Below are positions 16,966-47,398 of a DNA stretch of 64,000 nt, piece after piece. Position 1 is the first letter of the stretch. Each line of letters starts with the position of its first letter. The notes beneath the pieces were generated by a model that worked only from the letters and a program-made list of their open reading frames with translations, searched no databases and was not told where the DNA came from. The position numbers were made by a program, and so were the translations under genes. Location: positions 189,891-253,890 of the forward strand of contig JANQNK010000001.1 of assembly GCA_028279595.1 (NCBI GenBank), written 5' to 3'. The stretch is from Thermoplasmatota archaeon. Its GTDB lineage: Archaea; Thermoplasmatota; JAKEGO01.

Positions 16966-18198
16966 TCACAATTCCCCGGACCTGAGGGCCTCTGGGTCGA
17001 TGACGAGGTCGTCGTCCAGCAATCTTTCACCGAGTCCTGACACGTCGATCCCCCTGGTCATCAGACCGTATATCGGTCCGGTGTTCCTGATGCTCCCGAT
17101 GAACTGGACGCCCTGCATCCTCCCGTCAGAGACCATGATCTTCTTGTGATGGTGCGGTGTGGTCCGGACGAGCGTCTCTACCTCGCCAAGCTGTTCGCTC
17201 GTCATGCCCATGGTGATGACAGGAGTATCGAAGACATCGAGTATGTTCACGATGTCGGCCCCAGCGTACTCGAGCGGTGTATCCGTCATGTTCGAACCCG
17301 CTATCCGCCCCTGTTCGATGGCGTTGGGCCAGATCGCGAATGAGCCAGTGCTCCCGGTGATCTGCTCCCTGACCTCCGCGATGTCTCCGGCGGCATATAT
17401 GTCGGGAACGTTGGTCATCATCGATCCGTCGACCACTATCCCTCTGTTCACCTCGATCCCGGTCCCGTCGAGGAAACCTACGTTCGGAGCGACACCGATG
17501 GCGACGACCACCATGTCGCAGGGTATCTCCCTCTCATTCAGGGAGACGCTCTCGACCCTGTCCTCTCCATTGACGGCCTTTACAGAATCGTTGACGATGA
17601 CATCGACTCCTCCCTTCTCGAGAAGTTCCTTGACGATCTCCGAACCGTCCGGGTCCAGCATCCGTGTGAGAACGTGCGGAAGGAGTTCCACCACGGTCAC
17701 CTCGATCCCGAGTTTCCTCAGCTCCGTGGCCGATTCGATGCCCATGAAGCCTCCGCCCACGACGACCGCTCTTTCAACACCTCGATCCGCGTGGTCCCGT
17801 ATTGCCAGGGTAGATCCGAGAGTGCCCATCACGTGGACCCCATCGAGCCCCAGGAGCTCCGGAGGTGCGATCGGCCTTGCGCCTGCCGATATCAGCAATC
17901 TATCGTATTCGACGGATCCGCCGTCCCCGAGCTGGACCGTTCTGCCCGAGACGTCGATCCCCGTGACCTCCGAGTCCAGCATCAACTCCGCCTTCATCTC
18001 AACGTAGTAATCCTTTTCGTATCTGATGATCGTGTCCTCGTCGATGTCCCCCGATATCAGGTTCGGTAGGGAGCATGGCGAGTACGCGGTGTAGCCTTCC
18101 CTTGAAATGATGACGATATCCGAATCTGTGTCGAGCTCCCTGATCGTCTGAAGTGCGCTTATCCCGGCCCCGCCGTTTCCTATTATGACGTACTTCAT
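16966..18198 (-). CDS. FAD/NAD(P)-dependent pyridine nucleotide-disulfide oxidoreductase family protein
   Basis: MKYVIIGNGGAG, YSPC, GGGFMGIE, IYAAGD; start ATG 18198 overlaps the upstream stop. Confidence 0.85.
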   Translation of the reverse strand: MKYVIIGNGGAGISALQTIRELDTDSDIVIISREGYTAYSPCSLPNLISGDIDEDTIIRYEKDYYVEMKAELMLDSEVTGIDVSGRTVQLGDGGSVEYDRLLISAGARPIAPPELLGLDGVHVMGTLGSTLAIRDHADRGVERAVVVGGGFMGIESATELRKLGIEVTVVELLPHVLTRMLDPDGSEIVKELLEKGGVDVIVNDSVKAVNGEDRVESVSLNEREIPCDMVVVAIGVAPNVGFLDGTGIEVNRGIVVDGSMMTNVPDIYAAGDIAEVREQITGSTGSFAIWPNAIEQGRIAGSNMTDTPLEYAGADIVNILDVFDTPVITMGMTSEQLGEVETLVRTTPHHHKKIMVSDGRMQGVQFIGSIRNTGPIYGLMTRGIDVSGLGERLLDDDLVIDPEALRSGEL

Positions 18199-45563: not shown

Positions 45564-47398
45564 CGTTCCACCTCCTGTATGGCGTCGAACGCGCAGACCT
45601 GGGCGCACACCCCGCATCCGTCGCAGAGGGTCTCGTCGATGGTGACGACACCGTCCACAAGGGTCAGGGCGACACACCCGAACCTCTCGACGCAGACGTG
45701 GCACTTCGTGCACTTCTCCTGGTCGACCTGGTACGGGATTATCTCCTTACCGATCTTGCGCTTGTAGATGTCCGTGAGGAGAGCGCACGCCATCCTCGGG
45801 ATGACCACGGCGATGCCGTCGTGCTGCAGTGCGCGTCTGTAGACGTCTATCGTCTCCTTGAGATGATACGGGTTGACGACCTCGACGAAGTCGATGCCGA
45901 AACCCCGGACGAGGGTCGGTATGTCCATCATCGGGGCTTTCTCGCCCATGCCGTCCATCGGGGTTCCCGGATGCGGCTGATGTCCGGTCATCGCAGTTGT
46001 CCTGTTGTCAAGGATCGACAGCACGAAGTTGTGCTTGTTGTGAATGGCATTGATCAATGGAGGAATGCCCGAGTGGAAGAACGTCGAGTCGCCGATGAAC
46101 GCCATCACCGGCTCGTCCAGCATCCTGGACATCCCACACGCAGTGCCTATGGACGACCCCATCGATATCTCGATGTCTGCCGCCTCCAGCGGTGGGAGCA
46201 TCCCGAGCGTGTAGCAGCCGATGTCCATGGGATAGACCGCCTTTCCCTTCGATGCCACCTTTGCCGCGTAGTAGGAGGCCCTGTGGGGGCATCCGGGACA
46301 GAGGTTCGGCGGCCTCGAGGGCGCCTTGACATCGAGTGCCGGTATCTCTGCCGGACTATATTCGAGACCAAGCGCCGAGGCCAGTCCTGCCTCCACGATG
46401 TCGACATTGTACTCGAACAACCTCGAGAAATGGCCATCGTCCTTGCCGAAGATCTGGACGGAGAGCCCAGCATCGTGGGCGAACGCCTTGACCTGTGTCT
46501 CGAGGAACGGTTCGCCCTCCTCGACGGTGACGACCTTGTCGACGGAACCCATGAACTCGGTGATCATCCCCTTTGGCAGGGGATTGGTCATGCCGAGTTT
46601 CAGGACCTTGCACTGCAGACCCATGCGGTCGATGGCGTCGAGAACGTACTTGTACGCGACACCGGATGTGATGATCCCGATGTCGCCTTCACCCTCGATG
46701 AAGTTGAATTCGGCGGTCTCCGCGACCTGAAGGGCCTTCTCCATCTGCTGGAGCACCCAGGGGTGCCTCCTCCGGGCCACTGACGGAACGGTGACGAACC
46801 GGCCAGGGTCCCTCTGGAAGTCCGCTGTGTGATGGTCCTCGACCGGACCGAGGAGGACAGGCTCGCGTGCGTGGTTGATCCTCGTAGTGGTCCTGAAGAA
46901 TATTGGGACCTCGAGGTCCTCGGAGACCTTGAACGCCCGGACCATCATGTCCTTTGCCTCCGCGGGGGATGACGGTTCCATCATGGGCATGTTGCCCAGT
47001 AGCGCGTAGTAACGGTTGTCCTGCTCGTTCTGGCTTGAATGCATCCCCGGGTCGTCGGCCGTGAGGACGACCATGCCGCCCACGATCCCGACCGTCGCTA
47101 GGGTCATCAGACTGTCGGACGCCACATTGACACCGACGTGCTTCATGAACGCGAACGACCGGAGACCGGCCACCGCCGCACCGGCCGACCCCTCGAGGGC
47201 CACCTTCTCGTTGGTGGAGTACTCGAAGTACATCCCGGCGTCGGCAGCGATCCTGGAGAACGTGGTCCCTATCTCAGACGAGGGAGTGCCTGGATACGTC
47301 GATGCGTAGTCCACGCCCGCCTCCACGGCACCCCTGGCTATGGCCTCGTTGCCGAGCAACAGCAAGGTGGTGCCCTCTGGGGATAGTACCTTTTCCAA
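45560..47398 (-). CDS. iorA: Indolepyruvate:ferredoxin oxidoreductase alpha subunit
   Basis: LLGNEAIARG, YPGTPSSE, MKHVG, CPGCPH, DIGCY, GDSTFFHSG, TTAMTGHQ, C-terminal ferredoxin. Confidence 0.93.
   Translation of the reverse strand: MEKVLSPEGTTLLLLGNEAIARGAVEAGVDYASTYPGTPSSEIGTTFSRIAADAGMYFEYSTNEKVALEGSAGAAVAGLRSFAFMKHVGVNVASDSLMTLATVGIVGGMVVLTADDPGMHSSQNEQDNRYYALLGNMPMMEPSSPAEAKDMMVRAFKVSEDLEVPIFFRTTTRINHAREPVLLGPVEDHHTADFQRDPGRFVTVPSVARRRHPWVLQQMEKALQVAETAEFNFIEGEGDIGIITSGVAYKYVLDAIDRMGLQCKVLKLGMTNPLPKGMITEFMGSVDKVVTVEEGEPFLETQVKAFAHDAGLSVQIFGKDDGHFSRLFEYNVDIVEAGLASALGLEYSPAEIPALDVKAPSRPPNLCPGCPHRASYYAAKVASKGKAVYPMDIGCYTLGMLPPLEAADIEISMGSSIGTACGMSRMLDEPVMAFIGDSTFFHSGIPPLINAIHNKHNFVLSILDNRTTAMTGHQPHPGTPMDGMGEKAPMMDIPTLVRGFGIDFVEVVNPYHLKETIDVYRRALQHDGIAVVIPRMACALLTDIYKRKIGKEIIPYQVDQEKCTKCHVCVERFGCVALTLVDGVVTIDETLCDGCGVCAQVCAFDAIQEVER

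Follow-up and report, generated by a model that had tools for sequence, protein, structure and literature searches.

Genetic organization of the locus

The 64,000-nucleotide stretch analysed here (hereafter the window) forms the end of contig C4 in the metagenome-assembled genome (2.29 Mb, 86% complete) of a Thermoplasmatota archaeon. It encodes a conserved module that probably leads from phenylpyruvate to benzoyl-CoA and that lies among genes for the degradation of the aromatic ring. The core of this module consists of a lone 2-hydroxyacyl-CoA dehydratase (HAD) subunit, its activase, an ADP-forming acyl-CoA synthetase (ACD), an AMP-forming CoA ligase, a PanE-type reductase, a thiolase, a fusion enzyme of beta-oxidation and IorAB.

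On the minus strand, a compact run encodes a lone HadB-like dehydratase subunit of the HGD-D family (PF06050; 25385..26623), a fused alpha-beta ACD identified by its domains (23293..25380), the AMP-forming CoA ligase (21735..23291), a PanE/ApbA-fold D-2-hydroxyacid reductase proposed to act on arylpyruvate (20774..21733) and a GlcD/GlcF-like FAD-oxidase/Fe-S/CCG fusion, assigned from its domains as a 2-hydroxyacid oxidoreductase (18195..20777). The gaps between these genes are 4, 1, 1 and -4 nt. According to domain calls and open reading frame (ORF) coordinates, all of them are present and intact, in agreement with a preliminary description of the window that had recognized a tight operon here. 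Since an ATGA overlap carries the run onward into a flavoprotein gene (16966-18198) and then a methyltransferase gene (16150-16956), the operon probably comprises seven genes. The same description had noticed a divergent activase: the gene at 26824..27615 on the plus strand encodes an ATP-dependent activase of the HgdC/HadI/FldI type (TIGR00241, 203 bits for a cut-off of 125).

Downstream of the activase, the plus strand carries a thiolase gene (29160..30368), a FadB-like 3-hydroxyacyl-CoA dehydrogenase/enoyl-CoA hydratase fusion gene with the dehydrogenase part first (30380..32416), a dephospho-CoA kinase gene (coaE, PF01121; 32418..33008) and, in the same gene stretch, a run that the preliminary description had overlooked (33151..36336). 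This run encodes an acyl-CoA dehydrogenase (33151-34350), EtfB (34356-35141) and a ferredoxin-fused EtfA (35152-36336). The top PDB matches are CarC of 6FAH for the dehydrogenase, by a narrow margin, and CarE of 6FAH for EtfA (E 1.5e-109). CarCDE-like genes also lie near the thiolase and fusion genes in genomes G012 and G483. This complex is probably electron-bifurcating and is a candidate cinnamoyl-CoA reductase or phenylpropionyl-CoA dehydrogenase. It could feed benzoyl-CoA reductase (BCR) with reduced ferredoxin through partial reduction of cinnamoyl-CoA, or admit phenylpropionate.

The window also carries genes for ring reduction and ring cleavage. A Bzd-type class I BCR, BzdNOPQ, is encoded with a BzdV-like flavoprotein at 5183..12186 on the plus strand, outside the region that had been delimited previously (18195-47398). 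BzdN, BzdO and BzdQ (5183-9320) exceed the cut-offs of TIGR03190, TIGR03191 and TIGR03192, a second ATPase is present, and the BzdV label comes from position and domains. Further along, the minus strand carries a Dch-like gene (39071-39847) and a Had-like gene (39849-41018), both below the cut-offs of their models. They are followed on the plus strand by oah (41291-42427; above the TIGR03200 cut-off), a BzdZ-like SDR gene (42429-43175) and genes for an SCP2-type thiolase and its DUF35 partner (43190-44344 and 44346-44765). The Dch-like, Oah and BzdZ-like proteins are the best matches of their Desulfococcus multivorans counterparts. IorB (44961-45563) and its partner IorA (45560-47398), an arylpyruvate:ferredoxin oxidoreductase (IOR; TIGR03336, 798 bits for a cut-off of 651), are encoded on the minus strand. 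Thus, the two thiolases, the FadB-like enzyme and IorAB of the preliminary description were all retrieved. The gene order is real and not an assembly artefact, since two independent JGI contigs of a close relative (dehydratase 94% identical) repeat it.

The lone dehydratase subunit

The predicted structure of the lone subunit (pLDDT 91) is closest to the HadB alpha subunit (TM 0.91, Z 48.8, rmsd 1.8 over 391 residues). In the alignment, its residues S43, E61, C90, C130 and C358 correspond to S37, E55, C84, C117 and C346 of HadB, and they are invariant across the clade. It fails the models for BzdO (86 bits, cut-off 449), BcrB (142 bits, cut-off 487) and DCCP (NF040772; 65 bits, cut-off 350), and keeps four of the six ligand positions of BzdN. 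Furthermore, Val133 and Gly45 replace His131 and Trp46 of BzdO, two residues located in the BCR active site (PMC11971306). The second-best sequence match is MbdO. Two extra cysteines, C41 and C301, are also invariant in the clade: in the alignment with BzdN, C301 falls on a distal ligand of the double cubane, and C41 is offset by one residue from another ligand. The two may represent an additional metal site or the relic of one.

HADs are described as heterodimers (PMC11971306). The genome contains four HGD-D genes, namely the lone subunit, BzdN, BzdO and a DCCP-like gene on contig C1, and in the 53 related loci whose flanks were long enough, no second HGD-D gene was found over a distance of 3.5 kb. 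The C1 gene was considered as a beta subunit encoded elsewhere and was rejected, as this sole spare HGD-D gene is DCCP-like and has its own ATPases. Its locus (L035:9820-15806) encodes a DCCP-like double-cubane protein and two ATPases, with a 1013-aa ORF between the latter. When two copies of the lone subunit were modelled together, the prediction reached an ipSAE of 0.65, compared with 0.00 for the best control; among 30 solved pairs, 20 attain this mark, as does 1 of 23 single chains. At least 90% of the contacts agree between runs, with a pLDDT of at least 92. The lone subunit is therefore predicted to be probably a homodimer, a prediction to be taken as likeness and not as proof since HadBC and DCCP dimers are already solved and may be remembered by the predictor.

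In the tree, the lone subunits, including that of D. multivorans, form one starred clade, and the branching indicates no direction of transfer. Radical dehydration of the Fld type, as put forward in the preliminary description, agrees with the HadB-like alpha fold and the activase. Its canonical form does not: the beta subunit is missing, and no family III CoA-transferase (PF02515; FldA/HadA) was found in the 86% complete genome. Hence, the module would act like Fld combined with cinnamate beta-oxidation, yet it falls outside the canonical Fld system.

The PanE-type reductase

Aligned with E. coli KPR and PDB 3WFI, which we take to be the D-mandelate dehydrogenase of E. faecium, the PanE-type protein retains the catalytic residues Lys, Asn, Ser and Glu. 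It has Ala, Met and His at KPR Asn184, Asn194 and Asn241, presumably the pantoate-site residues. The Met and the His are also found in 3WFI and are common to 47 and 48, respectively, of 50 aligned rows. A paralogue at C4:76742 keeps all three Asn and is scored much higher by true KPRs, and no panB was found in the genome. A role of the window gene in CoA biosynthesis, considered in view of the neighbouring coaE, was therefore rejected. The Met/His residues and the paralogue indicate that the reductase is not a ketopantoate-type enzyme and likely belongs to the D-2-hydroxyacid dehydrogenase type assumed in the preliminary description. A class of PanE-type D-2-hydroxyacid dehydrogenases is described in bioRxiv 10.1101/2024.01.05.573888.

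In five carrier Thermoplasmatota no PanE of the module type was found; four of these have a GlcD/F-like gene near the lone subunit. Hence, the PanE-type and GlcD/F-like enzymes probably serve the same oxoacid/hydroxyacid step.

Relationship with the Desulfococcus multivorans clusters

PMC5109826 lists the D. multivorans genes Dmul_24730-24900 under phenylacetate and phenylpyruvate. Eight proteins of this cluster have their best genome-wide match in the window (one-way best matches). Identity reaches 66% for the AMP-forming ligase (Dmul_24840, FadD4) and 62% for the lone subunit, whose D. multivorans match sits at the published coordinates of Dmul_24850. It is 53% for the fusion enzyme (Dmul_24740), 48% for the thiolase (Dmul_24750) and for the activase (Dmul_24860), 43% for IorA, 37% for IorB (tied with a C14 paralogue) and 34% for the reductase (Dmul_24870). 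According to the same text, the ligase, the fusion enzyme, the thiolase and IorAB are induced, the strain grows on phenyllactate, and it lacks padB and padEFGHI. The cluster is reported there to be phenylacetate- and phenylpyruvate-specific; Dch, BzdZ and Oah, by contrast, are seen with every aromatic substrate.

That text also assigns the enzymes of the cinnamate/3-phenylpropanoate cluster to the conversion of cinnamoyl-CoA to benzoyl-CoA. For the phenylacetate route, it leaves the step to benzoyl-CoA unexplained and proposes phenylglyoxylate. The fusion enzymes of the two clusters (Dmul_24740 and Dmul_24680) are 99.7% identical, and their thiolases (Dmul_24750 and Dmul_24650, each 48% identical to that of the window) are 73% identical to each other. 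Since the two clusters share these enzymes, the simplest reading would be that both pass through cinnamoyl-CoA. Owing to their near identity, Dmul_24680 and Dmul_24740 (L133:10113-18592) are hardly separable by peptides in proteomics.

Distribution of the module

Relatives of the lone subunit (57-77% identity) are found in Thermoplasmatota, Desulfobacterales, Geobacter, Ignavibacteria, Aminicenantes and others, and the gene set is common to hundreds of strictly anaerobic bacteria. Across 44 long loci, the genes near that of the lone subunit include those for the activase (41 loci), ACD (38), PanE (34), the ligase (13), the thiolase (13) and IorA (9). Among 401 Desulfobacterales genomes, the lone subunit occurs in 152 (38%), oah in 146 and the two together in 132, for a chance expectation of 55 that treats kin as if they were independent. 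Among 221 Thermoplasmatota, 13 carry the lone subunit and include all 11 oah-positive genomes; the two carriers devoid of oah have bzdNO beside the module. This co-occurrence with oah ties the module to ring degradation. Moreover, the type of thiolase encoded at 29160-30368 occurs in eight of these 221 genomes, every one of them a carrier of the lone subunit.

Role of the two thiolases

The preliminary description had viewed the thiolase/DUF35 pair as a BbsAB-like enzyme releasing benzoyl-CoA. This assignment was rejected for the window: the thiolase scores 198 bits with the BbsB model NF053628 (cut-off 750) and its context is oah-bzdZ, not bbs. The order oah-SDR-thiolase-DUF35 is also found in D. 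multivorans and in genomes G458 and G483, with whose genes the window pair groups in the tree (support 84/89). Considering the failed BbsB model and this context, it is more likely that the pair serves the products of ring cleavage in the lower pathway. The benzoyl-releasing thiolase is probably that encoded at 29160-30368. Two other genomes (G011 and G049) harbour another thiolase/DUF35 pair beside the module, and the 29160-30368 type was not found in them; the BbsAB idea may hold there.

Proposed route to benzoyl-CoA

Taken together, these data make it probable that phenylpyruvate is converted through (R)-phenyllactate, phenyllactyl-CoA, cinnamoyl-CoA and benzoylacetyl-CoA to benzoyl-CoA and acetyl-CoA. 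From gene content, best-hit orthology, synteny, co-occurrence and active-site residues we infer every substrate, the direction of flux and the oligomeric state. Phenylpyruvate from transamination of phenylalanine (class I/II aminotransferases are present in the genome), or imported phenyllactate, would provide the entry, with the PanE-type enzyme reducing phenylpyruvate to (R)-phenyllactate. ACD or the AMP-forming ligase would activate phenyllactate to its CoA ester, and the lone HadB-like subunit, as a probable homodimer primed by its own ATP-dependent activase, would dehydrate phenyllactyl-CoA to cinnamoyl-CoA. The fusion enzyme and the thiolase at 29160-30368, a putative benzoylacetyl-CoA thiolase, would then form benzoyl-CoA together with acetyl-CoA, and the ring would pass to BzdNOPQ, Dch, Had and Oah. 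Oxidation by the Pad enzymes is quinone-linked. Since the proposed route needs redox steps at the NAD level only, it would suit strict anaerobes. The succession of arylpyruvate, aryllactyl-CoA, cinnamoyl-CoA and benzoyl-CoA drawn in the preliminary description is thus favoured by the orthology with D. multivorans, the PanE residues and the co-occurrence with oah; its views of the thiolase/DUF35 pair, of the direction of IOR and of a canonical Fld system had to be revised.

A tyrosine route in the host was rejected: no xanthine-oxidase-family gene was found in its genome, and thus no 4-hydroxybenzoyl-CoA reductase. Five other loci from Ignavibacteria and Thermoplasmatota (L100, L104, L160, L161 and L164) have xanthine-oxidase-family genes near the module, possibly encoding 4-hydroxybenzoyl-CoA reductase and hinting at a tyrosine branch there.

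IorAB may offer an additional entry. In the tree, six module-linked IorAs of Desulfobacterales form the sister group (94/94) of the IorA encoded in the window, and in all six loci a gene for a PaaK-like ligase adjoins iorB. Several bacterial operons have the order iorA-iorB-paaK-panE-activase-subunit-acd-ligase-thiolase. In methanogens, IOR carboxylates arylacetyl-CoA. As an AMP-forming ligase makes phenylacetyl-CoA instead of freeing phenylacetate, the bacterial gene order points to a carboxylative entry of phenylacetate, and suggests that IOR may run reductively. Together with a PaaK-type ligase, IorAB would thus let phenylacetate enter by reductive carboxylation of phenylacetyl-CoA. Supply of reduced ferredoxin by IOR, as assumed in the preliminary description, is one option given that IorAB is present, whereas the PaaK-linked relatives point to carboxylation. 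In the archaea, entry from phenylalanine or phenyllactate is the safer reading, because the PaaK gene of the host lies on another contig and no IorA match was found in four carrier archaea, three of which are 94-97% complete. A broader proposal combines these elements into a Pad-independent phenylacetate route of strict anaerobes, in which IOR would run in reverse to fix CO2 on phenylacetyl-CoA, followed by reduction, radical dehydration by a homodimeric single-subunit enzyme and beta-oxidation. In this proposal, archaea would take phenylalanine directly, and the dehydratase would represent a new architecture among HADs, marked by its two additional invariant cysteines, one of them located where a double cubane has a ligand. 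We regard this proposal as about as likely as not.

Several observations weigh against a route through cinnamoyl-CoA to benzoyl-CoA. No separate beta subunit (HadC/FldC) was found for the lone subunit among the four HGD-D genes of the genome, and its score with the HadB equivalog model (226 bits) is far below the cut-off of 750. The window IorAB genes lie 18 kb from the operon, away from a PaaK gene. The thiolase type encoded at 29160-30368 is missing from five of the 13 Thermoplasmatota carriers, and 20 of the 152 Desulfobacterales carriers have no oah. Through the CarCDE-like complex, cinnamoyl-CoA could leave the route by reduction. Finally, the accessible part of PMC5109826 does not state detection of Dmul_24850-70, and its authors read the step as phenyllactate to phenylpyruvate.

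Alternative explanations

The CarCDE-like complex is central to an account in which the module supports Stickland-type fermentation only. The complex would reduce cinnamoyl-CoA to 3-phenylpropionyl-CoA while bifurcating electrons to ferredoxin, ACD would free the acid and yield ATP, IOR and ACD would make phenylacetate, and little flux would reach benzoyl-CoA. IOR/ACD peptide fermentation is established in archaea, the genome encodes two IORs and several ACDs, and both the top PDB matches of CarC and CarE and the frequency of ACD in the loci are in line with this account. We nevertheless consider it unlikely, since the acyl-CoA dehydrogenase gene shares one run with the cinnamate-type thiolase and fusion genes, has no close relative in the bacterial module loci, and the module closely tracks oah, a gene for which a pure electron sink would have no use. 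A Stickland branch may run alongside the route to benzoyl-CoA. The flux published for D. multivorans goes in the opposite direction: phenyllactate (or hydrated cinnamoyl-CoA) would give phenylpyruvate, IOR would give phenylacetyl-CoA, and alpha-oxidation would lead through phenylglyoxylate to benzoyl-CoA. The cluster is read in this way in PMC5109826, HADs and IOR are reversible, and the GlcD/F-like enzyme could oxidise phenyllactate. Several points speak against it. Phenyllactate can be oxidised without any dehydratase or activase. Phenylacetyl-CoA has no beta-carbon, as would be required for the action of a hydratase, a 3-hydroxyacyl-CoA dehydrogenase and a thiolase. The four carrier archaea mentioned above have no IorA match, and neither PadB nor PadG/I was found in the host, 14 carrier archaea or five carrier bacteria. 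Such a reverse flux is therefore very improbable.

Concerning the Pad enzymes, a genome-wide search of the 86% complete genome retrieved no PadB, PadG, PadI or PadE, in line with the lack of pad genes noted previously. The sole Mo-bisPGD protein of the genome is NuoG/Fdh-like, the PadG, PadI and PadE models score far below their cut-offs, and PorA/VorA are a much closer fit for the POR-family enzymes. PadG also remains below its cut-off in the 19 further carriers (14 archaea and five bacteria).

The link with oah could also pass through the central pathway if the dehydratase acted on an aliphatic 2-hydroxyacyl-CoA, examples being 2-hydroxyglutaryl-CoA/glutaconyl-CoA in the lower part of the benzoyl-CoA pathway and a branched-chain acid. 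In favour of such a substrate, the module is present in 90% of the sampled Desulfobacterales that have oah and in all such Thermoplasmatota, the nearest solved structure acts on 2-hydroxyisocaproyl-CoA, and no OadB/GcdB-type decarboxylase subunit was found in the host genome. The published data on D. multivorans argue the other way, as the cluster is reported with phenylacetate and phenylpyruvate specifically, unlike Dch, BzdZ and Oah, which accompany growth on any of the aromatics. In addition, the module has links to PaaK, IorAB and beta-oxidation enzymes of the cinnamate type. We thus see hardly any room for an aliphatic substrate. Least probable of all, and close to negligible in our opinion, is that the lone subunit is a reductase, either an alternative catalytic BCR subunit working with BzdN or a DCCP-like enzyme. 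MbdO as second-best match and the alignment of C301 with a distal double-cubane ligand would agree with this. However, the absence of the BzdO His131 and Trp46, the low score with the DCCP model, the lack of bcrABCD in D. multivorans and the presence of only one other HGD-D gene in D. magnum argue against it.

Other genes of the window and the genome

An AFOR-family aldehyde oxidoreductase gene (AOR; 13889-15694) and the gene for its Fe-S subunit (15691-16149), both on the plus strand, converge with the last two genes of the minus-strand operon, i.e. the methyltransferase gene and the gene for a PadH/AorC-like flavoprotein (16966-18198). The latter is the one padH-like gene of the window and probably encodes AorC. 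With the AOR and the Fe-S subunit, it resembles an AorABC set (composition according to PMC6365974) split over converging operons (13889-18198), and this split arrangement recurs in several Thermoplasmatota. A lactate-permease-family transporter gene (1483-3516) lies upstream of bzdN and may be involved in aryllactate uptake. Between the activase gene and a radical SAM gene, two short direct-repeat copies are about 78 nt apart (27605-27740). After the activase gene come the radical SAM gene and one for a ThiS/MoaD-like protein (27829-29048), and a radical SAM gene adjoins the activase gene in other Thermoplasmatota as well. At the contig end (60001-64000), GC content drops from about 60% to about 40%, possibly indicating foreign DNA. 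A plasmid search gave distant matches only, and promoter signals were at chance level. As regards a possible electron sink of the host, the genome contains a NiFe hydrogenase gene, and the search for an OadB-type decarboxylase subunit was negative.

Comparison with known systems

We found no paper describing this route. Prior publication is possible, as several relevant papers on Desulfonema, Desulfobacula, Archaeoglobus and Methanococcus were outside our coverage; the Geobacter genome papers contained nothing on the module. The conversion of phenylpyruvate to benzoyl-CoA has been hypothesised for benzene degradation, with other genes (PMC13416013). The chemistry of the parts is known and the bacterial genes are already annotated as Fld-like; what is new is therefore the wiring and the enzyme architecture. 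The module may explain how phenylacetate and phenylpyruvate reach benzoyl-CoA without Pad in sulfate reducers and other strict anaerobes, a question left open in PMC5109826, and it provides a concrete pathway with a cultured carrier, D. multivorans. If true, the route would connect the breakdown of proteins with that of aromatic rings in sediment archaea, and the BCR/HAD family would gain a member made of one type of subunit.

The closest known system is the D. multivorans cluster Dmul_24730-24900 (PMC5109826), which shares the dehydratase alpha subunit, the activator, the PanE-type enzyme, FadD4, the thiolase, the fusion enzyme and an IorAB match (34-66% identity), is likewise set among genes of the benzoyl-CoA pathway and lacks Pad. 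Its published reading draws no connection to cinnamoyl-CoA. D. multivorans has a class II BCR (Bam) where the archaeon has a class I enzyme (Bzd). The archaeon adds ACD, the GlcD/F-like enzyme and the CarCDE-like complex, whereas the TRAP and ACT genes of the bacterial cluster were not found in the archaeal window.

The Fld system of Clostridium sporogenes (FldABC, FldI, FldH) and HadBC/HadI of C. difficile share with the module the HadB fold, the three cluster cysteines, the Ser and Glu residues, the activator and, as proposed here, the conversion of phenyllactyl-CoA to cinnamoyl-CoA. The archaeon differs from both by the missing beta subunit, by ligases in place of a family III CoA-transferase and by a PanE-fold reductase in the operon, and its product is probably oxidised to benzoyl-CoA instead of being just reduced, as in the Fld system. 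In Archaeoglobus fulgidus, phenylalanine catabolism reportedly proceeds via a phenyllactyl-CoA dehydratase together with IOR and ACD (Parthasarathy et al., 2013); this pathway is said to use a family III CoA-transferase and to lead to phenylpropionyl-CoA.

The beta-oxidation of cinnamate and 3-phenylpropanoate by D. multivorans (Dmul_24630-24680) and Aromatoleum aromaticum involves similar enzymes, the archaeal fusion enzyme and thiolase being 53% and 48% identical to those of D. multivorans. In the archaeon, cinnamoyl-CoA would come from phenyllactyl-CoA and not from external cinnamate. The CarCDE complex of Acetobacterium woodii (PDB 6FAH) resembles the archaeal run in its architecture, with genes for an acyl-CoA dehydrogenase, EtfB and an EtfA fused to ferredoxin side by side, and provides the top PDB matches; CarC is only narrowly ahead of other acyl-CoA dehydrogenases. 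Finally, the Pad pathway of Thauera and Aromatoleum has the same end product, benzoyl-CoA, but uses PadB, PadE, PadG and PadI, which were not found in the archaeal genome. In the archaeon, the side chain would leave as acetyl-CoA and not as two CO2.

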